Origin: Bacteroidales bacterium
GTDB lineage: Bacteria > Bacteroidota > Bacteroidia > Bacteroidales > UBA4181
Reading direction: 5' to 3'
Length of the DNA: 50,705 nucleotides
Assembly: GCA_031549585.1 (NCBI GenBank)
Contig: JAVBPN010000223.1
Location: forward strand, 1 to 50,705
In this document: piece by piece, positions 4,345 to 49,335 of the stretch
Position numbering within the stretch: the stretch's first letter is position 1
Layout of the letters: each line of letters opens with the position of its first letter
The notes under the pieces: generated by a model
Told to the model about the DNA's origin: nothing
Databases searched by the model: none
Seen by the model: the letters and a program-made list of their open reading frames with translations, nothing else
Program-made: the position numbers and the translations under genes

Positions 4345-6429
4345 CTATTCCTTCACCATTTTTACTGTTTGTACTTTACCTTGAAGTTCCAACTGAACGA
4401 AATATATCCCTTTGGATAAATCTGTTATGTCTATATAGATTTCAGTTGATGTAACAACAATTGCACGTACTACTTTTCCTGTAATATTGATGATTCGAAT
4501 GGTTGTTGGCGCTTCAATACCAGTTATAGTAACAAATTCGGTTGCCGGATTTGGATAGATTTTTATTACAGAAATATTAAAATCATTGAGAGCCGTTGCT
4601 GACATAATCGTAAAATCAGCACTTATAAACGTAATCGTATAATTGTCGCCGGCTGTCAGAGTTCCTTGTTTAATCTGGTAAGTTCCCACTAATTCGCCAT
4701 CTTCACGAATTAGTGCCCCGTCCAGGGCATCATTTGACAGCAAATCTCCAGAAGTCAGGGTATAAGTTAATAGGGGGTCTGGTTCTCCTTGTTTCTTACT
4801 TTGTCCGAGATTTGCTGTTATTGTCAGTGGCCGAGGAGCGATTTCAACTATATTTGAACGAAGTACACATATGCCCGAAGAAATTGCCACATAGTATGTT
4901 CCTATACTATTAGGCATGTATATGTTGGAGTTAGCCCCATCTATTGTTACGCCAGATTCATACCATTGGTAAGTCAGGTTTTCTCCAGTCGCAACCACCG
5001 ATAATGCGTTTCCGTATATATCATCTTGAGGTTGAGTGATAATAGCTGGATTTATACTAAGGGTGTAATCTAAAGAAACAACCGATCCAGAGTAAAAATT
5101 AAAATCATTATTAACAGTGATGCTTAAGTTATATGTTCCTCCTTGTGTGGGAACTCCCGATAAACTTATGTTTCTAGATAGTTCATCATATTCAAATGAC
5201 ATACCCATAGGCAGGATCCCTGACAAAATGACCTTAATTTCGGGTGTTCCATCAATAATCCAATTTTCATTAAAAGGATTTCCTGCACAAGCGTTGCCAC
5301 TTGTTGCACCATCGATGCTTGGATCGATTCCAACAACTACACGAATATCTGCTAAACGGAATATTTCGTTATCTTCAATTTGACCGGTTTCATTCAAATC
5401 ATAAGCAAATTGTAAGGTATAAAGCCCTGCATCATCCATAGTAATATTGCTTTTTAAATAGTCAGGAGATCCGAATTCACCAACGATAGGCGATCCGTCC
5501 TTATACCACTGCATATTACCTATGCCACTCATTACATCCAACCCTGATTCCAACCGTAACTCGTCACCCGGGGCAAGTAACAAAATAGATGGCATGATGA
5601 TATCTTTTACCACAGATTTTGTGCCTGCCTGCAAAGGAATTTCCACAAGATTCCCATATTGACTAATATCAGGAGCCAGCACAAGCAACGGATGCCCTGC
5701 GGAATATAAACCTGTTCCCATATAAGGCGGTTGAGTTGGCAATTCTACAACTTGAAGAACCAAACACCCAGAAAATGCAGCTGGACCAATCCTTGTAACT
5801 GCGGGTAAAGAAACAGAAGATAACGATACACAACTATGAAAAGCAGTAATTCCAATGTTTGTAACTGCTGGTAGGACAATGGAAGATAGTGATACGCAAT
5901 TCTCAAATGTTCCTCTTCCAATGCTTTCAACTATTGGCAAAGAAACTGCAGATAATAACGTACAATATGAAAATGCCCCCTCTCCAATATCTGTACTTGA
6001 TGGTAAAGAAATTTCAGGTAAAGATGAACACTGCGAAAAGGCAGAAGCTCCAACATTTTCAACTTTTGGTAAGAAAAATGAAATCAATGATTTGCAGGAG
6101 GCAAACGCAGCTTCTCCAATATTAATAATATGTTCAGCATGGATAGATAACAAAGAAGTGTTATACTCATCTTTATGAAACGCTTCTTCAGGAATTTCGG
6201 TATTGCCTGTTTTAAGCACCAAATGGTAAGCTTTTGTGGCATCCCTGAGTATAGACCAATCTGTAGCTTCCAAATCAGATCCACTAACTACCAAAATATC
6301 GTTATCGGTAAAAGCAGTAGGGAATGTGATATCTATATCGCTTGTTTTTATTATAGAATGAGTAGTTTGTGCATGAGAAATAATTGTATAAACCAGTAAA
6401 AAACAACATAAAGTAAATTTTATTTTCAT
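4345..6429 (-). CDS. Surface protein: BspA-type leucine-rich repeats, Ig-like and MBG-like region, T9SS C-terminal sorting domain
   Basis: The listed start at 6435 is TTG. ATG at 6429 gives MKIKFTLCCFLLVYTIISHAQ, a signal peptide. There are repeated ~22-aa LRR units (xSLxSVSLPxVxxIGxxAFxxC). YTITFISADFTI is MBG-like. The tail IKIYPNPATEFVTI...GIYFVQLELQGKVQTVKMVKE is a typical Por/T9SS C-terminal domain. Confidence 0.85.
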   Translation of the reverse strand: MKIKFTLCCFLLVYTIISHAQTTHSIIKTSDIDITFPTAFTDNDILVVSGSDLEATDWSILRDATKAYHLVLKTGNTEIPEEAFHKDEYNTSLLSIHAEHIINIGEAAFASCKSLISFFLPKVENVGASAFSQCSSLPEISLPSSTDIGEGAFSYCTLLSAVSLPIVESIGRGTFENCVSLSSIVLPAVTNIGITAFHSCVSLSSVSLPAVTRIGPAAFSGCLVLQVVELPTQPPYMGTGLYSAGHPLLVLAPDISQYGNLVEIPLQAGTKSVVKDIIMPSILLLAPGDELRLESGLDVMSGIGNMQWYKDGSPIVGEFGSPDYLKSNITMDDAGLYTLQFAYDLNETGQIEDNEIFRLADIRVVVGIDPSIDGATSGNACAGNPFNENWIIDGTPEIKVILSGILPMGMSFEYDELSRNISLSGVPTQGGTYNLSITVNNDFNFYSGSVVSLDYTLSINPAIITQPQDDIYGNALSVVATGENLTYQWYESGVTIDGANSNIYMPNSIGTYYVAISSGICVLRSNIVEIAPRPLTITANLGQSKKQGEPDPLLTYTLTSGDLLSNDALDGALIREDGELVGTYQIKQGTLTAGDNYTITFISADFTIMSATALNDFNISVIKIYPNPATEFVTITGIEAPTTIRIINITGKVVRAIVVTSTEIYIDITDLSKGIYFVQLELQGKVQTVKMVKE

Positions 6430-16456: not shown

Positions 16457-16523
16457 TTATTAATCACTTTATAGACATTTTTAACTGAAAATCTGAAACT
16501 TTAAATTTGAAATCTTAAATTTT

Positions 16524-18917: not shown

Positions 18918-18948
18918 GGTATGCTGATTTAAGGTTTAAGGTTTAATA

Positions 18949-19002
18949 TTTAAAGTTTCAGCTACTAACCTGAAATCTTAAATTTGAAACTTTAAATTAT
19001 TT
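18949..19002. repeat. AT-rich palindromic intergenic repeat (54 nt identical to 21422-21475)
   Basis: Sequence: TTTAAAGTTTCAGCTACTAACCTGAAATCTTAAATTTGAAACTTTAAATTATTTT. TTTAAAGTTTC (18949-18959) is the exact reverse complement of GAAACTTTAAA (18986-18996). It lies just 3' of the stop of 19003..21390. Confidence 0.85.
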
Positions 19003-21390: not shown

Positions 21391-21421
21391 AGTATATTGA
21401 TTTAAGGTTCAAGATTCAAAG

Positions 21422-21475
21422 TTTAAAGTTTCAGCTACTAACCTGAAATCTTAAATTTGAAACTTTAAATTATTT
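21422..21475. repeat. AT-rich palindromic intergenic repeat (second copy)
   Basis: Same 54-nt sequence as 18949-19002. Stem halves are 21422-21432 and 21459-21469. A related GAAAYYTTAAATTT x2 motif is at 16495-16522. Confidence 0.85.
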
Positions 21476-23853
21476 TATTCAGTTTTAATGCTCTTCACAG
21501 GATTAACTGTTGCTGCCCTAACGGCCTTCCAACCAACTGTTAACAAGGTTAAAAGTATGGTTATCAACCCCGCAACAGCAAACATCCACCAACTGATACT
21601 GATGTGATAAGCATAGTCCTGCAACATCTTTTCCAGCCAATAATAGGTCAATGGGAAAGCGATAAACATTGCAATGCACACCAGGAGAAGGAACTCTTTC
21701 AAGAGCATTTGTACAATGCCGGAGACACTGGCGCCAAGTACTTTGCGAATACCGATTTCCTTAGTTTTGGTTTCGGCAGTGTAGGTTACTAACCCGAAGA
21801 GGCCAAGACAGGATATCATAATGGCGATAAACGCAAAGATATACAGCAATTTGCCTAACCTGATATCCGTTTGGTATAGGCGCTCGAAATTGTCATCGAG
21901 AAATGAATAGCTAAAGCGTTGGTCCGGACAGTATTCTTTCCACAATTTTTCAACGGATGCCAATGTGCTTTTGGTCCCTTGAGTGGTTGTTTTAACATAA
22001 AAAAAGTTCTGGTAATTTTTGGTACAAAATAAAATCAAAGGTGAAACGGGTTGGTTCAAACTTTCAAAATTGAAGTCTTTGAAGATTCCGGAAACAGTAT
22101 AGGTCTTATTGCCTTGATGGATGATTTGGTGCAAAGGATCTTGCAACTGCATCTCCCGCACGGCTGTTTCATTCAAAAGACAGTATTCTTCACTGACAGT
22201 TTCCGGAGACATTTGTCCTTCAACTAATTGAATATTCATCAATTGCAAAAAGTCGAAATCGACAGTTCCGATGCCAAACTTAAGTGTCTTTTCTTTGCCC
22301 TGCCATGAAATTCCATAGTCAAAATTATAACCGAGCATATTATCGAGGCTTGCCGTGGCCATTCCGGCTACATCTGGATTTTTTTGCAATTCACCCCGTA
22401 CGGCATCCATATGCTTATTCATACCCCATGCCGAAAAACAAATGATATTTTCCTTATCATATCCCAAATCTTTTTTCCGGATGAAATTCATTTGTAAGGT
22501 GATGATCAGCGTGGATACAATCAGGGCTACTGAACAGACAAACTGAAGGACGACCAACACCCTCCGAAAAGAACTATGCGTGTTTTTGCTTTTTGCATAT
22601 TCCGATGAATCAAATGACGCAAGGTAAAACGAGGGATAAATCCCGGCAAGACCTAATACACTAATGATGGCAATTCCGTATATGGTAAGTACATGAAAGG
22701 AAAAGAGGTAGAATTCCATGTTTTTCCCCGCAATATGATTGTAGGCGGGCATTAACAGGTAGATCAGCGCAGTAGCCAAAACGATTGCTATCAATAGTAT
22801 GACACAAGTTTCCAGCATGGACTGCCCGACAATATCTTTCCATTTGGCGCCCAAAAATTTGCGGACCCCCATTTCTTTAGCTCGCTTTCCTGTATGGGCT
22901 GTGACTAAGTTCACATAATTGATACATGCAATCACCAGAATAAGGCCGGCAATAATTGCAAATAGGCGAACTTTTACCATTTCTCCAGGGCTTCCGTCTG
23001 CATTGTATAAATGTTGCGCAGTTATTTGCTGTAAGGGGAATTTCATGGATGGTACTTCTGATAAACCAAAAAGACTTGCATAGGGCGTCATCCCGCGAAT
23101 TACTATATCTTTCAATTTTGTTTCCACCTTCTGTAGGTTACCTTCCGGATAAAGTTCAAGGTATGTAAAATAATTAAAGCCCATTAAATCTTCATCAGGC
23201 CCTTTAAAACTGAAAGGTTCAGGAGAAACATATGTCTGTTTCATCAAACTAAAAGGAACAAGATAGTCATGCTGAAGAGAGGAATTTTCAGGCATATCTT
23301 TCATGATTCCCGTAACATAGAAATACTCATCACCCCAACTGGTTTTGATTGCTTTTCCCATGGGATTTTCATCTCCAAATATTGACCTGGCTGTTGATTC
23401 GGAAAGAATAATGGAAAAATCACCAGTAAACGGTTTTTGAGCATCTCCTTCTAATAAAGGAAAAGAGAACATGCTAAAAAAACTGCTATCTACTGCAGCG
23501 CCCCGGGTCGTGTTGTTATCATTGAGCAGCTGCCGGCCATTATAGTTGAAGTAACTAAATGAGAACCATTTATAAATACGACAAGCCTCCTTTATTTCAG
23601 GAATTTCCGCTTTTGCATAAACAGATAACCCTGCCGGAGTAGAATTAAAGAAATTCTCATTGTTGATGGAAGCATTTATCAAATAAATATTTTCTTTATT
23701 GCTGTGAAAACGGTCATAGCTCAATTCATCGTATACCCATAGGATAATCAGAATACAAGTTACCAGGCTCACCGTTAAACCGGTAATATTGATAACCGAA
23801 TACATGCCATTACGACGAAGGTTACGGAAAGCTATTTTTAAGTGATAGAGCAT
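21475..23853 (-). CDS. ABC-transporter permease, double FtsX / MacB-like (subfamily II)
   Basis: The listed ORF (to 23898) starts at an ATG inside the repeat arm (MSYGL...). ATG at 23853 gives MLYHLKIAFRNLRRNGMYSVINITGL, which aligns with the N-termini of the paralogues at 46616 and 44036. FtsX loops: KRAKEMGVRKFLGAK and ETKTKEIGIRKVLGAS. Confidence 0.88.
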   Translation of the reverse strand: MLYHLKIAFRNLRRNGMYSVINITGLTVSLVTCILIILWVYDELSYDRFHSNKENIYLINASINNENFFNSTPAGLSVYAKAEIPEIKEACRIYKWFSFSYFNYNGRQLLNDNNTTRGAAVDSSFFSMFSFPLLEGDAQKPFTGDFSIILSESTARSIFGDENPMGKAIKTSWGDEYFYVTGIMKDMPENSSLQHDYLVPFSLMKQTYVSPEPFSFKGPDEDLMGFNYFTYLELYPEGNLQKVETKLKDIVIRGMTPYASLFGLSEVPSMKFPLQQITAQHLYNADGSPGEMVKVRLFAIIAGLILVIACINYVNLVTAHTGKRAKEMGVRKFLGAKWKDIVGQSMLETCVILLIAIVLATALIYLLMPAYNHIAGKNMEFYLFSFHVLTIYGIAIISVLGLAGIYPSFYLASFDSSEYAKSKNTHSSFRRVLVVLQFVCSVALIVSTLIITLQMNFIRKKDLGYDKENIICFSAWGMNKHMDAVRGELQKNPDVAGMATASLDNMLGYNFDYGISWQGKEKTLKFGIGTVDFDFLQLMNIQLVEGQMSPETVSEEYCLLNETAVREMQLQDPLHQIIHQGNKTYTVSGIFKDFNFESLNQPVSPLILFCTKNYQNFFYVKTTTQGTKSTLASVEKLWKEYCPDQRFSYSFLDDNFERLYQTDIRLGKLLYIFAFIAIMISCLGLFGLVTYTAETKTKEIGIRKVLGASVSGIVQMLLKEFLLLVCIAMFIAFPLTYYWLEKMLQDYAYHISISWWMFAVAGLITILLTLLTVGWKAVRAATVNPVKSIKTE

Positions 23854-23885
23854 ATCGTTCGATTTTTTAAATGAGAGATGAAAGA

Positions 23886-24053
23886 GACCGTAAGACATGT
23901 AAGATGGTAAGACCGTAAGAGGTTGGGATGCTAACGGGGTCTACTATATATTTTGGTTGATTCAACATATGATCTATGATTGTATTTATTTGGCAAAAGG
24001 CAAATTCTTTCATTTTCTTACGGTCTTACGTGTCTTGCGATCTTACGGTCTTC
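23886..24053. repeat. Inverted-repeat intergenic cassette, copy A (L arm 23886-23922, core, R arm 24017-24053)
   Basis: L arm is GACCGTAAGACATGTAAGATGGTAAGACCGTAAGAGG. R arm is CTTACGGTCTTACGTGTCTTGCGATCTTACGGTCTTC. The R arm ends 2 nt before the stop of 24056..26407. The L arm lies 33 nt from the start of 21475..23853. Confidence 0.95.
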
Positions 24054-26407: not shown

Positions 26408-26527
26408 AACTTTTTTATTTAGCTAACTTTTAATAACAGATGGTGTAACAAAGAACGATGAATTATGAGTGATGAGTTTTTGAAAAACTCATCGTTCTTC
26501 TTTTATATCTCATCACTCTTTCATGTT

Positions 26528-28876
26528 TTATTCCGTTTTAATACTGTTCACAGGATTGGCTGTTGCTGCCTTGATAGCTTGAAAACCGACTGTAAACAAG
26601 GCTATCACCAAACTTATGAAACCAACCAATACAAATATCCACCAAGGCACATTGGTATGATATGAATAATTATTCAACCATTGATTCATTGCCCACCATG
26701 CAATGGGAGCAGCAATAGCAAAAGAAATCAATACCAATATCAAAAATTCCTTGGATAGTAATGTGGTGATACTTTGTACCGACGCTCCAAGTACCTTGCG
26801 GATGCCAATTTCTTTTTTACGGGTTTCAGCCATGTAGGAAACCAATGCAAATAACCCCAAACATGAAATAAATATGGTGAGGCCTGCAAACCATCCTGCC
26901 AAAGCGCTCGTTCTTTGTTCGTTTGCAAATTTACGGGCATACGCTTCATCAATAAACTTGTATTCAAACGGATAAGCCGGATTGTACTTTTTAAAGACCT
27001 GCTCTACCATGGCCAGGTTATCTGCTATTGAGCGGGTTCCATTCAATTTAATATGTACCACATCAAAAAAACCTGCGGGACCACCAATCATCATAGGTGT
27101 AACGGATTCGTAGGGCGACCTGAGAATAAAATCCTTGAAAACACCAACCACATGCCAATCCTTGCCTTGGGTATTGATAATTTCTCCAATGGGATGCTCT
27201 AAGTTCATCGCTTTTACAGCCGTTTCGTTGAGCAACATAGCAGTAGAATCTGTCGAATAGGTATGGATATCTATATCCCGCCCATCGATCATAGTCGTGC
27301 CTACTGTTTGTACCCAATCATCGTCAGTAAAAAATATTTCAAAGATTGTCTTTGCATCCGGATTTTTCCCTTTCCAATTAACTCCCCAGGTACTATTCCA
27401 GCCCTCTGACATAGGGGAACTATTCTTTGTCACAGATAATACAGCTCCCGAATTTAATAAATCTTGCCTAACCAATTCATAGTTCTTTTTTAATTCGGTA
27501 CCCAACATATGATAAATCAACAAGTCCTTGTTGTAACCAGACTCTCTGTTCTGTCCATACTTGATCTGGCGATGGACAATAAGGGTAGCAATGATCAGGA
27601 AACAAGCAACGGAAAACTGAACCACAACCAATATCTTTCGAGGCGATACCAATGCCTGCCCCGCTCTAAATATACCTTTCAATACCTTGATGGGTAAAAA
27701 TGATGATAAATAAAAAGCCGGGTAGCTTCCCGCCAGCAAACCAGTAAAAAGGATAAAAGCCGACCATGCCAACCAAAACCAACCACTGGTCAAATCCAAG
27801 GTCATGGTGGTACCCATCAAGGTTTCAAAAACAGGCAAAGCCAGTAACACCAAAGCAAGGGCTAGTATGCCAGCTATAAAAGCCGTAATCACCGATTCTC
27901 CCAAAAATTGCCCGACCAATGATGACCGTTTGCCTCCCATCACTTTTCGAACCCCTACTTCTTTGGCTCGTTTTTCGCTACGCGCAGTACTCAGGTTCAT
28001 GAAATTGATACAGGCAACCAGTAAAATCAAGGTGGCAATCAGGCCAAATAAACGCAAAGTATCGATTAACCCTCCCACGGGTATTCCATTCTCAAATTTG
28101 GTATACAAATGATATTTGTTCAAGGGATACAGGAAAGCTTCGACCGGATCATTATTGTTATGCTCTTTTACAATATCCCGGATAGCCTGATTCGTTGCAT
28201 CCAGACTAGCCATCGGTTGAAGCTCCACATAGGTCTGCAATACATTGCTACCCCAATGATCGGGATACGGACCCATTATTTTCTGCAAAGAAAAAGGCAC
28301 CAGTACTTCAAAGCGAAATGTCGTATTGCTGGGTAAATCTTTCATCACGCCAGTCACAGTTACGGGATATTTATTGTCAATCAATACCGTTTTTCCCATA
28401 GGATTTTCGCCATCGAACAATCGTCCCACTATTTTTTCAGTCAGAATAACCGAATAAGGATCTTTCAACGCCGTTTCCTTATCTCCTTGCAGCAATGGGA
28501 AATCAAACATGGTCAAGAAATCAGGATCGGTAATACCTGTTGCCAGATTCAGTTTTTTATCTTCATTGGTATATAACATCGTATTATCCCGCATTCTTGT
28601 TGTTGCCACAATATCCGGATAATCTGCTTTTAAAGTTGGCGCCATGGGAATAGGCGTCCAATTCCAGCATCTTAAAGAGCCGTCCAATTCGGAACGATTC
28701 CAGACCGTATACAATTGCTTCTCTTTGGTATGAAAACGGTCATATGACCATTCATGATAAATCCAAACAAACATCAGCATAGCGACTGCCATACCAATAG
28801 CTAACCCGGCAATATTGACAGAAGAGTAAAATTTGTTGTGCTTTAAACTCCGAAAAGTGGTTTTAATAAGATTCAT
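26528..28876 (-). CDS. ABC-transporter permease, double FtsX / MacB-like (subfamily III)
   Basis: The listed ORF (to 28975) reads through the repeat arm. ATG at 28876 gives MNLIKTTFRSLKHNKFYS, aligned with 24056..26407. It is that gene's closest paralogue. Confidence 0.9.
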   Translation of the reverse strand: MNLIKTTFRSLKHNKFYSSVNIAGLAIGMAVAMLMFVWIYHEWSYDRFHTKEKQLYTVWNRSELDGSLRCWNWTPIPMAPTLKADYPDIVATTRMRDNTMLYTNEDKKLNLATGITDPDFLTMFDFPLLQGDKETALKDPYSVILTEKIVGRLFDGENPMGKTVLIDNKYPVTVTGVMKDLPSNTTFRFEVLVPFSLQKIMGPYPDHWGSNVLQTYVELQPMASLDATNQAIRDIVKEHNNNDPVEAFLYPLNKYHLYTKFENGIPVGGLIDTLRLFGLIATLILLVACINFMNLSTARSEKRAKEVGVRKVMGGKRSSLVGQFLGESVITAFIAGILALALVLLALPVFETLMGTTMTLDLTSGWFWLAWSAFILFTGLLAGSYPAFYLSSFLPIKVLKGIFRAGQALVSPRKILVVVQFSVACFLIIATLIVHRQIKYGQNRESGYNKDLLIYHMLGTELKKNYELVRQDLLNSGAVLSVTKNSSPMSEGWNSTWGVNWKGKNPDAKTIFEIFFTDDDWVQTVGTTMIDGRDIDIHTYSTDSTAMLLNETAVKAMNLEHPIGEIINTQGKDWHVVGVFKDFILRSPYESVTPMMIGGPAGFFDVVHIKLNGTRSIADNLAMVEQVFKKYNPAYPFEYKFIDEAYARKFANEQRTSALAGWFAGLTIFISCLGLFALVSYMAETRKKEIGIRKVLGASVQSITTLLSKEFLILVLISFAIAAPIAWWAMNQWLNNYSYHTNVPWWIFVLVGFISLVIALFTVGFQAIKAATANPVNSIKTE

Positions 28877-28929
28877 GACTTTTTTATTTACTTGACTTTG
28901 TATAAAAACAATGAGTGATCTTTTAGATA

Positions 28930-29096
28930 GACCGTAAGACATGTAAGATGGTAAGACCGTAAGAGGTTGCGGCATTTACATGCATTGACGCTATATTTTG
29001 TTTGTTCGACATACGATCTATGATTGCATTCATTTGATAAAAATTAAATTTTCTCATTTTCTTACGGTCTTACGTGTCTTGCGATCTTACGGTCTT
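28930..29096. repeat. Inverted-repeat intergenic cassette, copy B (L arm 28930-28966, R arm 29060-29096)
   Basis: Both arms are identical to copy A. The core is homologous: …CTATATTTTGTTTGTTCGACATACGATCTATGATTG…. Confidence 0.95.
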
Positions 29097-29099
29097 CTT

Positions 29100-31454
29100 T
29101 TATTCCATTTTAATACTATTCATCGGATTGGCCGTTGCCGCTTTAACAGACTGAAAGCCAACCGTCAATAACGCAATAGCCAAACTAATCAACCCAACGA
29201 CAACAAAAATCCACCAAGGGATATTCGTACGATAAGAATAAGTACTTAACCATTTGTTCATCGCCCACCATGCAATGGGCGTAGCAATGGCAAAGGAGAT
29301 CAATACCAACACCAAAAATTCTCTGGAAAGTAAGGTGGTAATATTTTGTACAGACGCCCCAAGAACCTTACGAATGCCAATTTCTTTTTTGCGGGTTTCT
29401 GCCATGTAAGCTACCAGTGCAAATAAGCCCAAGCAAGAAATAAAAATGGTTAAACCGGCAAACCAGGTAGCCAATGATCCCATTTTTCGTTCTTCAGCAA
29501 ATTTATGGGCATATTCCTCATCCACAAATTTGTAATCGAAAGGATAAGCAGCATTGTATTGCTTTAATGCCTGTTCCACCTTAGCCAGATTATCCGCCAT
29601 ACGATTTTGTCCGTTCAATTTGATATGCATAATGCTCATCCACCCGCCGGGACCACCAATAAGCATAGGAACTACAGGTTCATAGGGTGAACGAAGGATA
29701 AAATCTTTAACCACACCCACCACATGCCAATCTTTGCCTTGTGTATTGACGATTTCGCCAATGGGATTCTCTAAATTCATCAATTTCAAAGCCGATTCAT
29801 TTAGCAACATAGCTGTAGAATCCGTTGGATAAGTATAAATATCAATATCCCGCCCTTCTACAATGGTTGTACCTGCTGTCTTTACCCAATCTGAATCCGT
29901 AAAATACAAGTCAAAAGTCAACCTTGCATTGGGGTCTTTTCCTTGCCAATTGACACCCCATGTGTTGCTCCATCCTTGCGACATAGGAGAAAGGGTTTTT
30001 GTCATAGATATGGCTGCTCCGGAGCTTAATAAATCTTGTTTGATGAGTTCATAATTTTTGACCATATCCCCTTCTAAAGAAACATAAATGAGTTGATCCT
30101 TATCATATCCGGATTCCCTGTTCTGCGCATATTTAATTTGGCGATGAATAACCAACGTAGATACAATCAAAGCGCAAGCAACGGTAAACTGTACCACTAC
30201 CAATATCTTTCGAGGCGACACCAATGCCTGTCCCGTTCTAAATATGCCTTTCAATGCCTTCACAGGAATAAAAGACGACAAATAGAAAGCCGGATAACTA
30301 CCGGCCAATAAACCGGTTAATAGGACAAAACCCAGTCCGGCCAACCAAAACCAACCATTGGCTAAACTTAAGGTTACATGTTGTCCCATCAATTTACCAA
30401 ATACCGGCAAAGCGAATATGGCAAGAATCAATGCGGCCACTCCGGCAATCAATGCGATGATGGTCGACTCACCCAGAAATTGCCAAATCAGCGACAAACG
30501 TTTACCGCCCATCACTTTCCGAACGCCCACTTCTTTTGCCCTTTTCTCACTACGAGCAGTACTCAAATTCATAAAATTGATACAAGCAATCAATAAAATC
30601 AATCCGGCAATGAGGCCAAACAAGCGTAATGACTCTATCAACCCTCCCGCAGGAACCCCATTTTCAAATTTGGCATATAGATGCCGCTTGCTGAGCGGGT
30701 ATAAAAACACTTCGACCGGTTCCTCATTATTGGTATGTGCTCGAGTAATATTACGAATGGATTCATTGACCAAATCCAATTGTGCATTGGGTTGTAATTC
30801 CACATAAGTTTGCAAGTTATTAGCAGTCCAACTATCGCTGGTCCAATCTAAAAGTTCCACAATAAACGGAATGGTGACTAATGCTTCGAACTGAAACAAG
30901 GTATTGCCGGGCAGGTCTTTCATCACGCCGGTGACCGTTACGGAACGCTGGTTATTGATCAAGAGTGTCTTACCCATTGGATCTTCATCACCGAACAAAC
31001 GTATAGCAACTTTTTCAGTCAAAACAACCGAATACGGATCATTCAATGCGGTTGTTGTATTCCCTTGTAATAAAGGAAAATCAAACATAGTTAAAAAATC
31101 AGGATCAGTGCAACTCGTTTGAATTTTAAACTTAGCATCTTCTTTGGCATAAAGCAAGGGTACATTCATTATTCTTGCTACTCCTGCCATTTCAGGATAA
31201 TCGGCTTTTAATGTTGGCGCCATAATCTTGGGCGTCCAATCCCAACAACGTACTGTGCCGTCAAACATAGAACGATTATATACCACATAGAGCTGTTTCT
31301 CCTTGGTATGAAAACGGTCATATGACCACTCGTAATGTATCCATGCAAGGATCAAAATAGTGGCTGCCATACCAATGGTTAAGCCTGCTATGTTGATGAA
31401 AGAATAAAATCCATTGCGCTTTAAACTCCGAAAAGTGGTTTTAATAAGATTCAT
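29100..31454 (-). CDS. ABC-transporter permease, double FtsX / MacB-like (subfamily III)
   Basis: 784 aa with an ATG start (MNLIKTTFRSLKRNGFYS). Same architecture and FtsX loops as its paralogues. Confidence 0.9.
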   Translation of the reverse strand: MNLIKTTFRSLKRNGFYSFINIAGLTIGMAATILILAWIHYEWSYDRFHTKEKQLYVVYNRSMFDGTVRCWDWTPKIMAPTLKADYPEMAGVARIMNVPLLYAKEDAKFKIQTSCTDPDFLTMFDFPLLQGNTTTALNDPYSVVLTEKVAIRLFGDEDPMGKTLLINNQRSVTVTGVMKDLPGNTLFQFEALVTIPFIVELLDWTSDSWTANNLQTYVELQPNAQLDLVNESIRNITRAHTNNEEPVEVFLYPLSKRHLYAKFENGVPAGGLIESLRLFGLIAGLILLIACINFMNLSTARSEKRAKEVGVRKVMGGKRLSLIWQFLGESTIIALIAGVAALILAIFALPVFGKLMGQHVTLSLANGWFWLAGLGFVLLTGLLAGSYPAFYLSSFIPVKALKGIFRTGQALVSPRKILVVVQFTVACALIVSTLVIHRQIKYAQNRESGYDKDQLIYVSLEGDMVKNYELIKQDLLSSGAAISMTKTLSPMSQGWSNTWGVNWQGKDPNARLTFDLYFTDSDWVKTAGTTIVEGRDIDIYTYPTDSTAMLLNESALKLMNLENPIGEIVNTQGKDWHVVGVVKDFILRSPYEPVVPMLIGGPGGWMSIMHIKLNGQNRMADNLAKVEQALKQYNAAYPFDYKFVDEEYAHKFAEERKMGSLATWFAGLTIFISCLGLFALVAYMAETRKKEIGIRKVLGASVQNITTLLSREFLVLVLISFAIATPIAWWAMNKWLSTYSYRTNIPWWIFVVVGLISLAIALLTVGFQSVKAATANPMNSIKME

Positions 31455-31824
31455 AATTTTAATATTTCAGATTTAAAATTTAAAGTTCCAAGTTATTTTA
31501 TACGTTCCCTTTAAACTTATTTCGTTTTAGTGATATCAATTTATAGCCCTAATGTTTGTAACCGTTGTTGCCAAATACGATCTTTTGATTTGACATATCC
31601 CCTACTCATTGGGAACAATACAGAAAATACTGACCTTTTGCCCAAGTGTATTTTCGATATGGTTGAAAAAGTATTCATGGCTTTATTTTTTACAATTCAT
31701 ACTGCACAATGAAAAACAATCGCCATGCCGCAATGATAAAATACTGTATTTGTGTGCTATACAAAATAATTTATCATGGGAAATGTTCGGCTATAGTACA
31801 TAAGTGTTAGTTTTCGGACAGTCA

Positions 31825-31911
31825 GAAGACCGTAAGACATGTAAAATAGTAAGACCGTAAGAGATTGTTGTTTTCTTACGGTCTTACGTGTCTTGCGATC
31901 TTACGGTCTTC
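31825..31911. repeat. Core-less hairpin form of the cassette, copy C (arms separated by an 11-nt loop)
   Basis: Sequence: GAAGACCGTAAGA-CATGTAAAATAG-TAAGACCGTAAGAG / attgttgtttt / CTTACGGTCTTA-CGTGTCTTGCGA-TCTTACGGTCTTC. It lies immediately 3' of the stop of 31914..34340. Confidence 0.9.
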
Positions 31912-36718: not shown

Positions 36719-36769
36719 AATTTATGTGTTTTAATAGTGTTTCTATGATGATGAGTAATCTTTTAGATA

Positions 36770-37042
36770 GACCGTAAGACATGTAAGATGGTAAGACCGT
36801 AAGAGGTTGGGATGCTAACGGAATTGACTATATATTTGTGTTTATCCGGCATCTGGTTTATGATTGTATTTATTTGACAAGATCAAATTCTTTCATTTTT
36901 CTTACGGTCTTACGTGTCTTGCGATCTTACGGTCTTTTTTATTTTGTTGATTCAACATACGATCTATGATTGTATTTATTTGACAAGATCAAATTCTTTT
37001 ATTTTTCCTACGGTCTTACGTGTCTTGCGATCTTACGGTCTT
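36770..37042. repeat. Cassette copy D with a duplicated distal core and R arm (L 36770-36806; R1 36901-36936; R2 37007-37042)
   Basis: The ~106-bp segment ending in R1 is repeated directly after it. The core piece TGATTGTATTTATTTGACAAGATCAAATTCTTT occurs twice. R2 has one mismatch (CCTACGG). Confidence 0.9.
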
Positions 37043-39404: not shown

Positions 39405-39637
39405 GATTGAAATATTTCAGGTTTAAAATTTAAAGTTTCTGGTTGTTTTATACGTTCTTTTTAAACTTATTTCGTTTTAGTGGTATCAATGCTTTATTTT
39501 TTTACAATTTACACTACACAATGACAAACAATCAACGTGCCGTAATGCTAACATGCTATATTTATGCGCAATACAAAATAATTTATCTTGAAAAAATGTT
39601 CGGATATAGTACATAAGTGTCCGTTTTCGAACAGTGG

Positions 39638-39717
39638 GAAGATCGTAAGACCATAAGACACGTAAGACCGTAAGATGCTGTCGTTTCCTTACGATCTTAC
39701 CATTTACACGTCTCGAC
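39638..39717. repeat. Degenerate core-less hairpin, copy E, with arm centres in the opposite arrangement to copy C
   Basis: Sequence: GAAGATCGTAAGA-CCATAAGACACG-TAAGACCGTAAGA / tgctgtcgtttc / CTTACGATCTTAC-CATTTACACGTCTCGAC. The first arm matches the reverse complement of the R arm (34/38 by hand). The second arm matches the reverse complement of the L arm. Confidence 0.75.
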
Positions 39718-40156: not shown

Positions 40157-40633
40157 ATGGAAAACAGACATTCTCAGGCTGTCCCCGAAGACATCATCAA
40201 CCAGGTGAAAAGCCGCCTGTCGGAAGCAAAAAAACTTCTTGAACCTTATTGCCCGACGCTTACCGTAGAGCAGCGCAAGTCACTTCCCAAAATGAGCGAC
40301 GGAACCCTTGCATTCGGCGAAAAATCGCTAGAACATGCCATCAACCATCCCGAATTCCTGCCTTCGCACATCAGCTTGGATGATTGGAAGATCGACATGG
40401 CCGATGTGAATAACCTCAAGCAGGTGATGGTACTGGTTGGCGATATCAACCAAATGGTGGACGATACCCGCATGACAGCCGGTAATGAAGCCTATTTTGC
40501 TGGTCGCGGCTATTATCACAATGTGCAACGAGCATCTGGCGACGGCGTTCAGGGTGCCTTACCTATTCAAAAAGACCTGGCTACCCAGTTTGCAAACCGC
40601 AGGCCTTTGTCGGCCAACAAAAAAGCGGAGTAA
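40157..40633 (+). CDS. Conserved hypothetical protein (no domain I can name)
   Basis: 158 aa with an ATG start. It is the only plus-strand gene in the right 35 kb. It has non-repetitive, coding-like composition and is followed by a good intrinsic-terminator hairpin. The sequence resembles a helical Bacteroidetes hypothetical family (…LTVEQRKSLPKMSDGTLAF…DDTRMTAGNEAYF…), recalled from memory only. Confidence 0.55.
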   Translation: MENRHSQAVPEDIINQVKSRLSEAKKLLEPYCPTLTVEQRKSLPKMSDGTLAFGEKSLEHAINHPEFLPSHISLDDWKIDMADVNNLKQVMVLVGDINQMVDDTRMTAGNEAYFAGRGYYHNVQRASGDGVQGALPIQKDLATQFANRRPLSANKKAE

Positions 40634-40942: not shown

Positions 40943-41189
40943 GACATACCCCGGAGGTATGTTGACATACCTTTTTGTTATGTAGACATCCCACCATAGC
41001 ATGTCTACATGACTCCAAACTATGTTGACATACCTTTTTTGCTACATCGACATCATACCATACCATCTCGACATGGCTCCGAACTATGTTGACATACCTT
41101 TTTGCTATGTCGACATCATATCATACCATCTTGACATAGCTCTGAACCATGTTGACATACCTTTTTGCCGTGTCGAGATACCTTATTGG
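40943..41189. repeat. Phased 21-bp direct-repeat array (12 GACAT-type cores), also readable as ~3.6 units of 63-64 bp from 40959
   Basis: GACAT cores start at 40943, 40964, 40985, 41006 (TACAT), 41027, 41049, 41070, 41091, 41112, 41133, 41154 and 41175 (GAGAT). Spacing is 21 bp, with one 22-bp step. The motif context is ATGT(T/C)GACAT. The 63-64-bp units start at 40959, 41022, 41086 and 41149. Confidence 0.9.
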
Positions 41190-41202: not shown

Positions 41203-41415
41203 GACCGTAAGACATGTAAGATGGTAAGATCGTAAGAGGTTGTGATACTTACATGTATTGATGATATATTTTGTTTATTCAATATATAATCTATAATTGT
41301 ATTTGTTTGGTAAAATCAAACTTCTTCTTTTTCTTACGGTCTTACGTGTCTTACGGTCTTACGGTCTTCTTTCATTTTCTTACGGTCTTACGTGTCTTGC
41401 GATCTTACGGTCTTC
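41203..41415. repeat. Cassette copy F with an extra variant R arm (L 41203-41239; R' 41333-41369; R 41379-41415)
   Basis: The L arm has 1 mismatch. R' is CTTACGGTCTTACGTGTCTTACGGTCTTACGGTCTTC, in which the CTTGCGAT unit is replaced by CTTACGGT. R is canonical and abuts the stop of 41416..43782. Confidence 0.9.
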
Positions 41416-43782: not shown

Positions 43783-43861
43783 GACATTATTTTATTTACT
43801 TGACTTTTGAATAACAGATGATGTAACAAAGAGCGATGAATTATGAGTGATCTTTTAGATA

Positions 43862-44033
43862 GACCGTAAGACATGTAAGATGGTAAGACCGTAAGAGGTT
43901 GCGACACTTACATGTATTGGCGCTATATTTTGTTTATTCGACGCCATATCTAGTCTATGGTTACATCTATTTGACAAAAATTAAATTTTATCATTTTCTT
44001 ACGGTCTTACGTGTCTTGCGATCTTACGGTCTT
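43862..44033. repeat. Inverted-repeat intergenic cassette, copy G (L 43862-43898; R 43998-44033)
   Basis: Arms are identical to copy A and the core is homologous. It lies between subfamily IV and subfamily III genes. Confidence 0.95.
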
Positions 44034-44035
44034 TC

Positions 44036-46408
44036 TTATTCCGTTTTAATCGCCTTTACCGGATTAGACGTGGCTACTTTGACTGTTTGAAAACCAACCG
44101 TAAGTATGGCGATGAGCAGAATAAGCACACCGACCGCCATAATCAGCCATACGGTTATGTTCGTACGATAGGGAAATATCATCAACAATTGATTCATCAT
44201 GAACCAGGCCAAAGGTGCGGCAATAACAAAAGCAATGCCCGTCAGCACCAAATATTCCCTGGAAATCAGCAATGAGATGTTGGCTATCGAAGCGCCTAAT
44301 ACTTTACGGATGCCAACTTCTTTTTTACGCCGTTCGGCTGTAAGGGCGGCCAATGCAAACATACCCATGCATGAGATCAGGATAGTAATGATGGTAAAGA
44401 AATCTGCCAGCGATTTGATTGGTTTTACCATAGCGAAATGCGTAGCAACGTATTCTTCGTCTATAAACCTGTAATCGAACGGATGGGCGGGGTTGTATTT
44501 TCTATAAATACTTTCTACTGAAGATAGTTTGTCGGCCGTTTTGCCGGGGCTTAACCGGATATGCACCGTGGTGCGCTCAACCACTTTTTCGTTGCAACCG
44601 ACAACCAAAGGATGGATATTTTCGAACGGATGAAGTACTAAATCCTTGATTACTCCCGCCACCTGGCCCTCTTGGCCCCAAAAAGAAATCGTCTCTCCGA
44701 TGGGATTTTCGAATCCGATGATTTTCACAGCCGTTTCGTTGAGCAAGAAGGCCGTGGAGTCTGCAGGCCGGGTTGCCGGGTCGGGATAACGCCCCGCAAC
44801 GAGTTCTACACCCATCATTTCCGCCCAATTACCATCCGCAAAATAATAATCGAAGAATTGTTGGGCATCGGGATCTTTACCTTGCCATTTTATGCCATCA
44901 GTTAGTGACCCAAACGTCGACATGGGCGCATTTGTTTTTGTTACATCCGTTACCGCGCCCGATGCCATCAAATCGTTCCGGAAAGCCGGATAATGTTTCC
45001 TGATTTCATCCGTAAGCGAAATACGGATTAAATTTTCGTTATCCCATCCCATCTGGCGGTCTTGCGCATAAACGATTTGTTTGCGCAGTGTCAAGGCGCC
45101 AATAATTAAAATCACAGTAACGAAGAATTGAAATACCACCAATGTTTTGCGTAGCGTAATGCGGCCACCGAAGTGAACATCGCCTTTTAATACCTTGACA
45201 GGACGAAATCCTGACAGATAGAAGGCCGGATAGCAACCGGCCAATAGCCCTGTGAAAAGAATGAACCCCACAGCAAATACCCAAAAATGCCTGTCGAAAA
45301 TATCCAAAGACAATACTTTTCCGCTAAATCCGCTCAACCATTCCGAAAAATAGGGCAACGCCATATAAATCAAAAGAAATGCAATAACGCCCGAAACAGA
45401 AGCCAACACAATCGATTCCCTTAGAAAATGCCCGATAAGCCCAATACGCCTGCCGCCCATCACTTTACGCACTCCCACTTCCTTAGCCCGCAACGTTGCC
45501 CTGGCCGTGCTGAGGTTCACAAAATTAATGCAGGCAATAAGCAGAATAACACTTGCCAGAATGGTAAATATGCGCAGGAAAGTGATCAGCCCCCTCGAGG
45601 GAACACCGTTTTCAAAATCCCTATACAGATGTGATTTGTACGACGGAAACAGAAATGTTTCCCTTTGCGCCCGCTGCTCGGTATGATTTTTAATGATGTC
45701 ACAGATAGAAGCATTCAACCGGGCTAATGGTACATGAGGGGCTACTTCCACATATGTCTCAACCATATTGACCCACCACGACGTTGTATTCCAGTTATGC
45801 ACTTTTTCTACGAATTGAATCGAGCCGACTATTTCGAAGTCAAAACGGGTGTTGTTGGGCAAGTCTTTCATGATTCCCATCACTGTCACCGGATATTTTG
45901 CATCGCACATGATGGTTTTCCCCATCGGATCTTCATCACCGAAAATTCGCCGGGCAGCCTTTTCGGTCAGGATAATGGAATACGGGTCGTTGAGCGCCGT
46001 ACGTATATCTCCCTGCAACAACGGAAAATCAAACATGGTGAGAAAGGAAGGATCGGTATGCAGGGTACGCATACTTATATGCCTTTCGCCTTCACCGAAA
46101 TAATAAATGCCACCCCTCGAGACACGTGCCGATTCGACAATTTCCGGATATTCGTCTTCCAGGGCGGGGCCGATCACTAATGAAGTGTAGTTGGTATATG
46201 AATCCTGTCCGTTATATGTCGCCTTATTCCACACCATGTATATTTGTTCGGCTTTGGTATGGAAACGATCGGACGACCATTGATTATACACCCATATCAG
46301 CAAAAGTGCGGAAGCAGCCATGCCGATGGCCAATCCGCCGATGTTGATGATAGAATAGAACTTGTCGCGGCGCAGATTGCGCAAAAAGATTTTAAGATGA
46401 TAGAACAT
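44036..46408 (-). CDS. ABC-transporter permease, double FtsX / MacB-like (subfamily III-like)
   Basis: The listed ORF (to 46492) reads through the repeat arm. ATG at 46408 gives MFYHLKIFLRNLRRDKFYSIINIGGLAIGMAASALL. FtsX loops: NLSTARATLRAKEVGVRKVMGGRR and ERRKKEVGIRKVLGAS. Confidence 0.88.
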   Translation of the reverse strand: MFYHLKIFLRNLRRDKFYSIINIGGLAIGMAASALLLIWVYNQWSSDRFHTKAEQIYMVWNKATYNGQDSYTNYTSLVIGPALEDEYPEIVESARVSRGGIYYFGEGERHISMRTLHTDPSFLTMFDFPLLQGDIRTALNDPYSIILTEKAARRIFGDEDPMGKTIMCDAKYPVTVMGIMKDLPNNTRFDFEIVGSIQFVEKVHNWNTTSWWVNMVETYVEVAPHVPLARLNASICDIIKNHTEQRAQRETFLFPSYKSHLYRDFENGVPSRGLITFLRIFTILASVILLIACINFVNLSTARATLRAKEVGVRKVMGGRRIGLIGHFLRESIVLASVSGVIAFLLIYMALPYFSEWLSGFSGKVLSLDIFDRHFWVFAVGFILFTGLLAGCYPAFYLSGFRPVKVLKGDVHFGGRITLRKTLVVFQFFVTVILIIGALTLRKQIVYAQDRQMGWDNENLIRISLTDEIRKHYPAFRNDLMASGAVTDVTKTNAPMSTFGSLTDGIKWQGKDPDAQQFFDYYFADGNWAEMMGVELVAGRYPDPATRPADSTAFLLNETAVKIIGFENPIGETISFWGQEGQVAGVIKDLVLHPFENIHPLVVGCNEKVVERTTVHIRLSPGKTADKLSSVESIYRKYNPAHPFDYRFIDEEYVATHFAMVKPIKSLADFFTIITILISCMGMFALAALTAERRKKEVGIRKVLGASIANISLLISREYLVLTGIAFVIAAPLAWFMMNQLLMIFPYRTNITVWLIMAVGVLILLIAILTVGFQTVKVATSNPVKAIKTE

Positions 46409-46447
46409 AGGGCAATGTGTGTTAAGTGATGAGTAATCTTTTAGATA

Positions 46448-46613
46448 GACCGTAAGACATGTAAGATGGTAAGACCGTAAGAGGTCGCGCACTTACATGT
46501 ATTGATGCTATATTTGGTTTATTCGACATTTAATCTATGATTGTACTTATTTGGTAAAATCGAACTCTTTCATTTTTCTTACGGTCTTACGTGTCTTGCG
46601 ATTTTACGGTCTT
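46448..46613. repeat. Inverted-repeat intergenic cassette, copy H (L 46448-46484; R 46578-46613)
   Basis: The L arm is identical to copy A. The R arm has one mismatch (GATTTTACGG). The core contains an exact TATATTTG at 46509-46516 on the plus strand. Confidence 0.95.
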
Positions 46614-49043: not shown

Positions 49044-49119
49044 CGTCATTGCGAACCTGAAAGGTGAAGCAATCTTTTGATAAGAAAATTAGATTGCTTC
49101 GCTCACGCTCGCAATGACG
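49044..49119. repeat. Two-part imperfect palindrome (REP-like hairpin)
   Basis: CGTCATTGCGA…GAAGCAATCT / loop / AGATTGCTTC…TCGCAATGACG. The outer 11 bp and inner 10 bp are complementary. The motif resembles small palindromic repeats seen in Bacteroidota intergenic DNA (from memory, not verified). Confidence 0.6.
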
Positions 49120-49299
49120 TTCATCTTTAACTTTTGAATTTCTTTAGGCATACTTTCCGACAATCATTTAATTTTATCTCTGTCAAAGAGCACAACCACA
49201 GACAAAAAATTCCTCTCCGACAGTAATCGATGGATCCTGTCAGCGGAGGAATGCTTCATATTTCGGTTGATCACTTTGATCATAGGCTATTTATCTCTT

Positions 49300-49335
49300 C
49301 TTACGGTCTTACATGTCTTGCGATCTTACGGTCTT
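49300..49335. repeat. Solo R arm of the cassette (no partner L arm)
   Basis: CTTACGGTCTTACATGTCTTGCGATCTTACGGTCTT lies 2 nt from the stop of 49338..50705. The 48971-49299 interval contains no L arm or cassette core. Confidence 0.85.

Follow-up and report, generated by a model that had tools for sequence, protein, structure and literature searches.

Why should the non-coding DNA between the members of a diverged gene family be better conserved than the genes themselves? The question is raised by JAVBPN010000223.1, a 50,705-nt contig of a Bacteroidales bacterium (the whole of this stretch is called the window in what follows), where 13 MacB/FtsX-type permease paralogs stand in tandem, all on the minus strand, in an array that runs off the contig end. 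Their products, of about 785-818 amino acids, carry MacB_PCD and FtsX domains in a domain search of the open reading frames (ORFs) of the window. An initial annotation had drawn attention to an inverted-repeat cassette of about 167 bp at junctions between these genes, with arms that hardly vary even where the proteins on either side are very different. This is indeed the case, as the paralogs, those flanking cassettes included, are 27-87% identical to one another. The arms prove to be short tandem arrays built on the hexamer GTAAGA, and it is now largely established that this repeat is widespread in Bacteroidota, where it is strand-specific at the 3' ends of genes. The hairpin version with a 94-base insert is a real, apparently undescribed variant of bacterial intergenic repeats. 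The more interesting finding, however, is the octamer array itself, anchored at stop codons and conserved in its hexamer across Bacteroidota, of which the cassette is a local curiosity.

Read along the gene strand, the order at a junction is as follows: stop codon, 1-3 nt, R arm, an AT-rich core of about 94 nt (93-99 nt), L arm, 32-79 nt and the next ATG. The letters L and R name the arms as they lie on the plus strand. R is the 5' arm, following the stop codon of the upstream permease (AAGACCGTAAGATCGCAAGACACGTAAGACCGTAAGA on the gene strand), and L the 3' arm ahead of the next gene (its complement is CCTCTTACGGTCTTACCATCTTACATGTCTTACGGTC). The copies and the features next to them are these.

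24017..24052, minus strand: R arm of cassette A, 4.5 units of GTAAGA+YN, starting 3 nt past the stop codon of permease P4 (24056..26407).
23923..24016, minus strand: core of cassette A, 94 nt, AT-rich.
23886..23922, minus strand: L arm of cassette A, read on the gene strand as an inverted array of TCTTAC and separated by 32 nt from the true start codon of P3 (ATG, about 23853).
28930..29096, minus strand: cassette B, between P6 and P5 (R 29061-29096, core 28967-29060, L 28930-28966).
31828..31910, minus strand: copy C, a coreless hairpin (R 31875-31910, 10-nt loop, L 31828-31864) after the stop codon of P7, then a 373-nt leader to P6.
36770..37042, minus strand: cassette D, between P9 and P8 (outer R 37007-37042, partial core 36937-37006, inner R 36901-36936, core 36807-36900, L 36770-36806), that is, R, 67 nt of core, R, core and L.
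39637..39717, minus strand: copy E, a diverged coreless hairpin, flipped, with an R-like arm on the plus strand at 39639-39675, then 232 nt of leader to P9.
41203..41414, minus strand: cassette F, after the stop codon of P10 (outer R 41379-41414, R' 41333-41368, core 41240-41332, L 41203-41239 with one mismatch), that is, R, 9 nt, R', core and L, then 1.5 kb of non-permease DNA.
43862..44033, minus strand: cassette G, between P11 and P10 (R 43998-44033, core 43899-43997 of 99 nt, L 43862-43898).
43844..43861, minus strand: conserved leader ATCTAAAAGATYACTCAT, directly after the L arm of G.
46448..46613, minus strand: cassette H, between P12 and P11 (R 46578-46613 with one mismatch, core 46485-46577, L 46448-46484).
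49300..49335, minus strand: solo R arm (S), 2 nt past the stop codon of P13, with no inverted partner.
49203..49250, minus strand: canonical hairpin with a T6 terminator, read from sequence, the solo R arm lying about 50 nt upstream of it.

Such matches are far beyond chance. The 37-mer of the L arm is found seven times at up to three mismatches, exactly in A, B, D, G and H (23886, 28930, 36770, 43862, 46448), as first noted, with one mismatch in F and three in C; 100 shuffles of the window sequence gave no match. The 36-mer of the R arm is found ten times and never in shuffled sequence. Six of these matches are exact and three have one mismatch (37007, 46578, 49300), in line with the initial description of this arm as identical or one base different in every copy, to which the match at 41333, with two mismatches, is the exception. 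All these matches lie within 23.8-49.3 kb in a single orientation, and a looser search for arrays found none in the other 23 kb of the window (about 12 junctions). Corrections to the copies and their coordinates were limited to details of C, D, E and F and to strand. D and F, first taken as plain full copies, each hold two R arms, while E, rightly called coreless, is diverged and flipped: local alignment places its R-type arm on the other strand (score 28 against 12), and its leader is collinear with that of copy C. The R arm does abut the stop codon, at a measured 1-3 nt instead of 2-3 nt; likewise the L arm of A, B, D, G and H does lie shortly upstream of the next gene, the distance of about 35-80 nt becoming 32-79 nt when the ATG is placed by N-terminal alignment. 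Since the gene-strand frames stay open through the L arm, the ORFs 21475..23898, 26528..28975 and 44036..46492 carry spurious N-terminal extensions of 15-32 codons; their real starts, by alignment, are near 23853, 28876 and 46408.

The contrast in conservation, first seen by eye, stands up to measurement. Among the six cored copies identity reaches 97% in the R arm and 99% in the L arm, against 71% in the core (range 60-83%), 61% in the last 150 nt of the upstream gene, 47% and 40% downstream, and about 33% after shuffling. The cores are mosaics, with many mutually incompatible site partitions across the six copies ({A,D} versus {B,F,G,H}, for example, and {B,G}, {F,H}, {D,G}, {A,F,H}), and the R arm is duplicated in D and in F. 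The leader ATCTAAAAGATYACTCAT recurs at 28912-28929 (B), 36752-36769 (D) and 46430-46447 (H) and is missing in A, C and F. One leader thus recurs behind the L arm although the genes downstream of it share only 28-30% identity, and in G, in B and in an arm-less junction at 26408-26527 the homology extends to the ATG. This last junction separates the two most similar paralogs (87%); it has a hairpin of its own (GAGTGATGAG ... CTCATCACTC) involving the conserved leader and, in its first bases (AAACATGAAAGAG), is similar to the beginning of the cassette core.

In other genomes, relatives of the window permeases belong to the same subfamilies and are 67-77% identical, an exact-protein look-up finding the window permease not on record. 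What stands at their junctions is a GTAAGA hairpin without core, a one-sided array or another hairpin, rich in C. Among 186 fetched loci an nhmmer profile of the six cores matched only the window copies, and a metagenome scan for arms 85-112 nt apart found none. Arms at 97-99% identity beside cores at 71%, flanks at 40-61% and paralogs at 27-87%, together with a core absent from relatives, argue that the cassette is much younger than the gene duplications, or else undergoing homogenisation. The ten R arms, all of 4.5 units and differing by at most two bases, point to recent homogenisation because arrays elsewhere change their unit number quickly. An assembly artefact is excluded, the arms being 36 nt long and sitting between strongly diverged genes. 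The initial annotation had left the choice between sequence-specific function, concerted evolution and recent spread of a mobile element; concerted evolution, or recent copying among junctions, is what receives direct support.

Copying or gene conversion between junctions would seem to be favoured over transposition by the mosaic cores, by the shared leader running to the ATG and by a 3' block that is constant whatever the 5' flank. The transposition account nevertheless deserves to be spelled out. The cassette would be a MITE (miniature inverted-repeat transposable element), or a REPIN-like element, its 36-nt arms serving as terminal inverted repeats for a transposase encoded elsewhere. REP sequences are mobilised by the RAYT transposase, and we know of no RAYT gene in these genomes. 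Only elements with intact ends would transpose, which would leave the arms identical, and the insertion of several old sub-lineages would leave the cores different. The length of about 167 bp, the long inverted ends and the short, non-coding, AT-rich interior (93-99 nt) all fit, as do ends much better conserved than the interior and copies younger than the flanking genes; arms at 100% beside cores at 71% are moreover accounted for without resort to very short conversion tracts. The account is harder to reconcile with the absence of a target-site duplication: B, D, G and H all have ATCTAAAAGATYACTCAT on their 3' side, irrespective of the 5' flank, and the candidate duplication TAAAAG was rejected, its 3' copy being constant while its 5' copy varies. 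Furthermore, the permease array contains all nine copies and the rest of the window none, the insertion point is always 1-3 nt past a stop codon, the cores are mosaic, the arms do not stand apart from a repeat that is free to vary in unit number, and the window encodes no transposase. Arms scattered genome-wide at random intergenic sites with target-site duplications had been named beforehand as the mark of an ordinary MITE. Arm-like arrays are scattered genome-wide elsewhere, but their sites are stop-anchored and strand-specific, and the cassettes of the window show no such duplication. We consider a mobile element of this kind unlikely.

Inverted repeats flanking about 94 bp upstream of each gene also bring invertons to mind. 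The arms would allow a promoter-bearing core to invert, making the permeases phase-variable, or the core would hold a fixed antisense promoter that silences the upstream gene. Every core has GTTG, 19-22 nt and TATAT(T)TTG on the plus strand, and a shared recombinase would maintain identical repeats around diverged interiors; hairpin E is, in addition, flipped. Yet the flipped copy is the coreless one, and the six cores share one orientation in the assembled sequence. TAnnTTTG is exact in only two of the six cores, coding DNA has complete -33/-7 matches about as often, and the window lacks a recombinase gene. In many genomes, finally, the same arrays form hairpins with loops of 8-20 nt, too short to invert, and this account is very improbable. 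On the gene strand, the TTTG/TAnnTTTG promoter has no match between R arm and ATG in the window, a motif that is uninformative here, its matches elsewhere being mostly inside genes.

Other contents of the core were considered and rejected. A small ORF is open in A and B only, meets early stops in D, G and H and has no ATG in F. As a structured RNA, the core gives a consensus fold without a supported helix and with one compensatory change. An FNR/CRP-like palindrome, TTGAT-N4-ATCAA, fits B only, its spacing differing between copies. Rfam, proposed at the outset as a place to look, had no family matching any part of the window, whether at the gathering score or at E <= 1.

What, then, are the arms made of? 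Each consists of 4.5 tandem units of either GTAAGA+Y+N (8 nt) or GTAAGA+C+R+Y (9 nt), and Tandem Repeats Finder (TRF) assigns to the R arms a period of 8 in 4.5 copies; arrays of the octamer can be noted (GUAAGACC)n or (GTAAGACC)5. A scan of one genome per species with the pattern CGTAARA-N9-13-GTAAGAYCGTAAGA returned at least 112 loci. Among the matches listed, about 40 are spread across the contigs of Danxiaibacter flavus (Chitinophagaceae), about 60 belong to Bacteroidales, Dysgonomonadaceae, Tannerella and Culturomica metagenome-assembled genomes, and further ones to Chitinophagaceae, Sphingobacteriales, Lewinellaceae and Cytophagaceae; the few from outside Bacteroidota are pure microsatellites. 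A metagenome scan with an R-arm-like pattern contributed 70 more loci, and in viral contigs the pattern was met in only 1 of 2.9 million. In the library of papers that could be searched, none contains GTAAGACCGTAAGA, and the 14-mer and its octamers led to no relevant one.

A unit logo drawn from 150 arrays of at least six units, with two mismatches allowed per hexamer, has every position of GTAAGA conserved at 96-99%, the variable spacer positions reaching only 0.5-0.8 bits. The spacer is Y then N in units of 8 nt and C-R-Y in units of 9 nt, period 8 being commoner than period 9 by 2-4 to 1. By contrast with the hexamer, the number of units is labile. Near-identical strains differ by whole units (5 versus 14 and, in another pair, one more unit in each arm), while arrays may reach about 30 units, with assembly gaps falling inside some of them. 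The near-identical metagenome contigs compared were those of loci L130 (2600-2830) and L137 (30-270), and of L124 and L151; the additional unit present in both hairpin arms of one pair hints at coupled changes of the two arms.

The location of these arrays is far from random. For one-sided arrays, ORFs of at least 80 amino acids on the sense strand, stopping between -8 and +20 nt from the array start, were counted against ORFs on the opposite strand stopping just beyond the array end: the outcome was 50 versus 6 in the genome set (p 1e-9) and 31 versus 7 in the metagenome set (p 1e-4). On the sense strand arrays begin at the stop codon or within about 10 nt of it. Often the stop codon is the TAA of the first unit, or else it runs straight into the prefix (A)AGAAGAC, after which comes CGTAAGA. 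What lies upstream is a mixture of unrelated genes (enolase, PEPCK, isocitrate dehydrogenase, gyrB, FtsK, Cas1, LacI and others), FtsX permeases making up only 8 of 69, so that the idea of a signal particular to permeases finds no support. One hairpin comes directly after a tRNA-Thr gene, which argues that the element is independent of translation. For about one array in three, an inverted partner is found no more than 150 nt away. Where convergent genes have paired arrays, each gene sees GTAAGA on its own sense strand, and in tandem-gene contexts of other genomes 9 of 11 hairpins end 0-61 nt ahead of the next ATG. Compensatory spacers between the two arms of hairpins in other genomes were sought and rejected: complementarity was found in 20 of 143, for a chance expectation of 15.6 +/- 3.5. 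The arms thus behave as independent arrays that pair through their hexamers.

This distribution invites the view that GTAAGA hexamers are read by a trans-acting factor, be it an RNA-binding protein, the termination or 3'-end machinery working on the 3' untranslated region, or a DNA-binding protein. The arrays would be signals in their own right and the cassette arms a constrained, high-affinity version of them. Several observations go in this direction: a hexamer conserved at 96-99% amid variable spacers across several Bacteroidota orders, the strong strand bias with its anchoring at stop codons, the frequency of one-sided arrays, some followed by separate terminators, and the invariance of the unpaired middle units of the arms. 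However, the factor is hypothetical, the variation of unit number from strain to strain is that of neutral minisatellites, unrelated 7-8-nt arrays in the same intergenic regions suggest a general tendency to build arrays, and viral contigs practically lack the motif, at 1 in 2.9 million. A trans-acting reader is accordingly possible, if somewhat doubtful. We would attach the same reserve to its most developed form, in which GTAAGA(Y)N arrays might constitute a Bacteroidota-wide, strand-specific and stop-codon-anchored cis-signal, read by a putative RNA-binding protein or by termination/3'-end-processing machinery, the invariant permease arms being a locally amplified, high-occupancy version that would set the expression of each paralog.

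At the other extreme, the whole may be a neutral by-product. Arrays made by slippage would survive only in 3' intergenic DNA, and the cassettes would be duplicated junk homogenised by recombination. The minisatellite-like behaviour of unit number fits, as do the several other array types in the same regions and the growth of arrays to about 30 units, with assembly gaps inside them. Slippage products are, however, not expected to conserve a hexamer above its spacers, to display the identical hexamer in distant families, or to show a 50:6 sense bias, which makes this explanation improbable.

The folding of the cassette leads to another explanation. On the gene strand, cassette A folds at -48 kcal/mol (z -6.2) and the coreless copy C at -49.9 kcal/mol (z -9). 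The arms are complementary over their inner 14-15 nt and their outer 11-12 nt. The consensus fold pairs only the arms, and their invariance means that covariation offers no evidence either way. On the antisense strand the middle of the arms pairs better (three G.U pairs; -74 versus -48 kcal/mol). Intrinsic termination was considered and rejected for the cored copies, where loops of 93-99 nt are followed by GGUCUAUCUAAAAG, a U-rich tail (CUUCUUUUAUU) being present only in the antisense direction, and also for the coreless copy C, where the stem is tight but followed by just UUCU. At the solo-arm junction the separate hairpin with its T6 terminator (49203..49250) shows that the array itself does not act as terminator there. 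The cored copies appear to lie inside putative operons in five cases out of six, F being at a putative end, while the coreless and solo copies appear to stand at putative operon ends.

The explanation that we favour, tentatively and with less than even confidence, is an intercistronic RNA hairpin made of the octamer repeat, of the REP/BIME/ERIC/Correia kind, spread and homogenised among junctions by gene conversion. One hairpin with a loop insert of about 94 nt, AT-rich, would have been copied together with its short leader among the junctions of an old permease array, and the copies kept alike via gene conversion or unequal recombination between junctions. In the transcript, the 5' arm would start within the footprint of the terminating ribosome, and its pairing with the 3' arm would give an interrupted stem some 30 bp long. 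This stem may protect the 3' end of the upstream cistron, offer an RNase III-type processing site, or both, and would in this way allow neighbouring paralogs to differ in level. Inside operons, a loop of 94 nt would make termination less efficient and permit read-through, whereas the tight coreless version (C) and the solo arm with its terminator (S) would mark operon ends ahead of long leaders (232-373 nt for C, E and S). The function of cassette and arrays is, to be sure, something that we infer from their sequence.

Several points weigh against this hairpin explanation. The middle of the arms, although unpaired, is also invariant, and mRNA pairing cannot be the sole constraint; spacers at chance complementarity and the many partnerless arrays imply that the conserved hexamer needs more than a hairpin. 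The putative operon layout is deduced from spacing alone, and one of the cored copies, F, is placed at a putative operon end. Transcription through the cassettes, formation of the stem in vivo and its processing are likewise things that we infer. Conversion limited to 36-nt arms while the cores stay 29% diverged would be unusual, and selection on whole arms, or selection at the level of transposition, fits the contrast between arm and core equally well.

How does this element compare with known systems? Newbury et al. reportedly found in 1987 that REP stabilises upstream mRNA, and Liang, Rudd and Deutscher are said to have found in 2015 that a REP within about 15 nt of a stop codon lowers translation of the upstream gene. 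By definition a REP is 20-40 nt long, imperfectly palindromic and headed by GTAG or CGTC (PMC3733652). With REP/BIME of enterobacteria and REPINs of Pseudomonas the cassette shares an extragenic, multi-copy nature, a position just after stop codons or between cistrons, and an arrangement in inverted pairs, folding into long hairpins around a spacer that is conserved less well; unlike them, its arms are non-palindromic tandem units of 8-9 nt (TRF period 8), not self-complementary and variable in number. Correia elements of Neisseria, ERIC/IRU of enterobacteria and RUP of pneumococcus resemble it by their 100-170 bp, their terminal inverted repeats of about 25-35 bp and their AT-rich interior. 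Transcribed together with the genes beside them, Correia, ERIC and RUP elements form long stems processed by RNase. They are, however, dispersed, with target-site duplications (TA for Correia) and ends of unique sequence, whereas the cassette has no duplication, keeps to one paralog array in the window and ends in generic octamer arrays.

Integron attC sites, such as the Vibrio cholerae repeats, also consist of an imperfect inverted repeat after each of a series of genes in the same orientation, and are far better conserved than the genes. Here, by contrast, neither R''/L''-L'/R' boxes nor a GTTRRRY core site can be read in the cassette sequence, no integrase is encoded in the window, and the genes are paralogs instead of unrelated cassettes. 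The invertons of gut Bacteroidales share inverted repeats flanking 100-200 bp upstream of surface or membrane gene clusters, with repeats common to several loci; the cassette differs from them by the lack of a recombinase in the window, the single orientation of its cores, the weak promoter match and the loops too short elsewhere. As arrays, the closest parallel lies in the STRR of cyanobacteria and in the TAACTGA heptamer repeats, intergenic arrays of 7-8 nt that contain stop codons and are strand-biased, patchy and variable in copy number (PMC4679880). GTAAGA arrays are likewise head-to-tail intergenic arrays of a short unit, with a copy number that varies between strains. The TAACTGA repeats, known from Beggiatoaceae, Cyanobacteria and some Bacteroidetes, lie for the most part immediately upstream of start codons (PMC4679880), whereas GTAAGA arrays have a different unit, start at stop codons and often have an inverted partner.

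Further repeats accompany those described above. The first permease junctions of the window (18918-19002 and 21391-21474) have a different hairpin, made of A/T-rich units of 7-8 nt (TTTAAAGTTTCAAATTTAAGATTTCAG ... CTGAAACTTTAAATATTAAACCTTAAACC); such units are one-sided at 16457-16523 and also lie just upstream of the ATGs at 31454 and 39404. At metagenome loci, other arrays stand beside GTAAGA arrays (TGTTCAYT, TTCTTAAT, ACTCTAWA, CTGAAAA), and these genomes seem to be generally rich in short-period intergenic arrays. In a relative, many permease junctions of loci L114 (7372-7548, for example) and L115 (9770-10001, for example) have a cassette-like layout built from a different repeat, with CCCCCTCCC...GGGGGAGGG hairpins on both sides of a conserved AT-rich core, the second of which stops some 8 nt short of the ATG. 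An inverted repeat of REP-like appearance, CGTCATTGCGAACCTGA / TCACGCTCGCAATGACG (arms 88% complementary), is found at 49044-49119 and again at the L114 junction 4694-5015, and makes a second, unrelated family of extragenic palindromes common to the window and its relative. The long leaders after coreless hairpins (31455-31825 and 39405-39637 in the window; L114 2040-2365; L115 7090-7416) share blocks across genera, GTNCGAAANCGAAC ... TGTA ... CCGAACA ... GGCAYG ... TTTGWT, which have no Rfam hit and could be a promoter or 5'-untranslated element of permease operons.

Inside the permease array but on the opposite strand, a 158-amino-acid ORF (40157-40633, plus strand) is 82% identical to an equally placed ORF of Bacteroidales EPI_MAG_00084 (L114 12915-13391) and has no match among Pfam, NCBIfam or PDB sequences. 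Between this ORF and cassette F, at 40958-41176, lies a 63-nt tandem repeat in 3.5 copies (85% matches) with ATGTCGACAT / ATGTTGACAT palindromes.

Even if GTAAGA arrays are mere repeats, they explain assembly breaks at permease arrays and create spurious N-terminal extensions of ORFs, and identical direct repeats of 36 nt are a means by which transporter paralogs can be reshuffled, deleted or duplicated. The question can be tested in a cultured carrier, Danxiaibacter flavus SYSU DXS3180. Bacteroidota are mostly without Hfq, have an unusual Rho and, to our knowledge, use no Shine-Dalgarno sequence. If the arrays are functional, they would mark the 3' ends of genes in a phylum whose post-transcriptional signals are poorly known, and would provide a handle for finding the factor that reads them.

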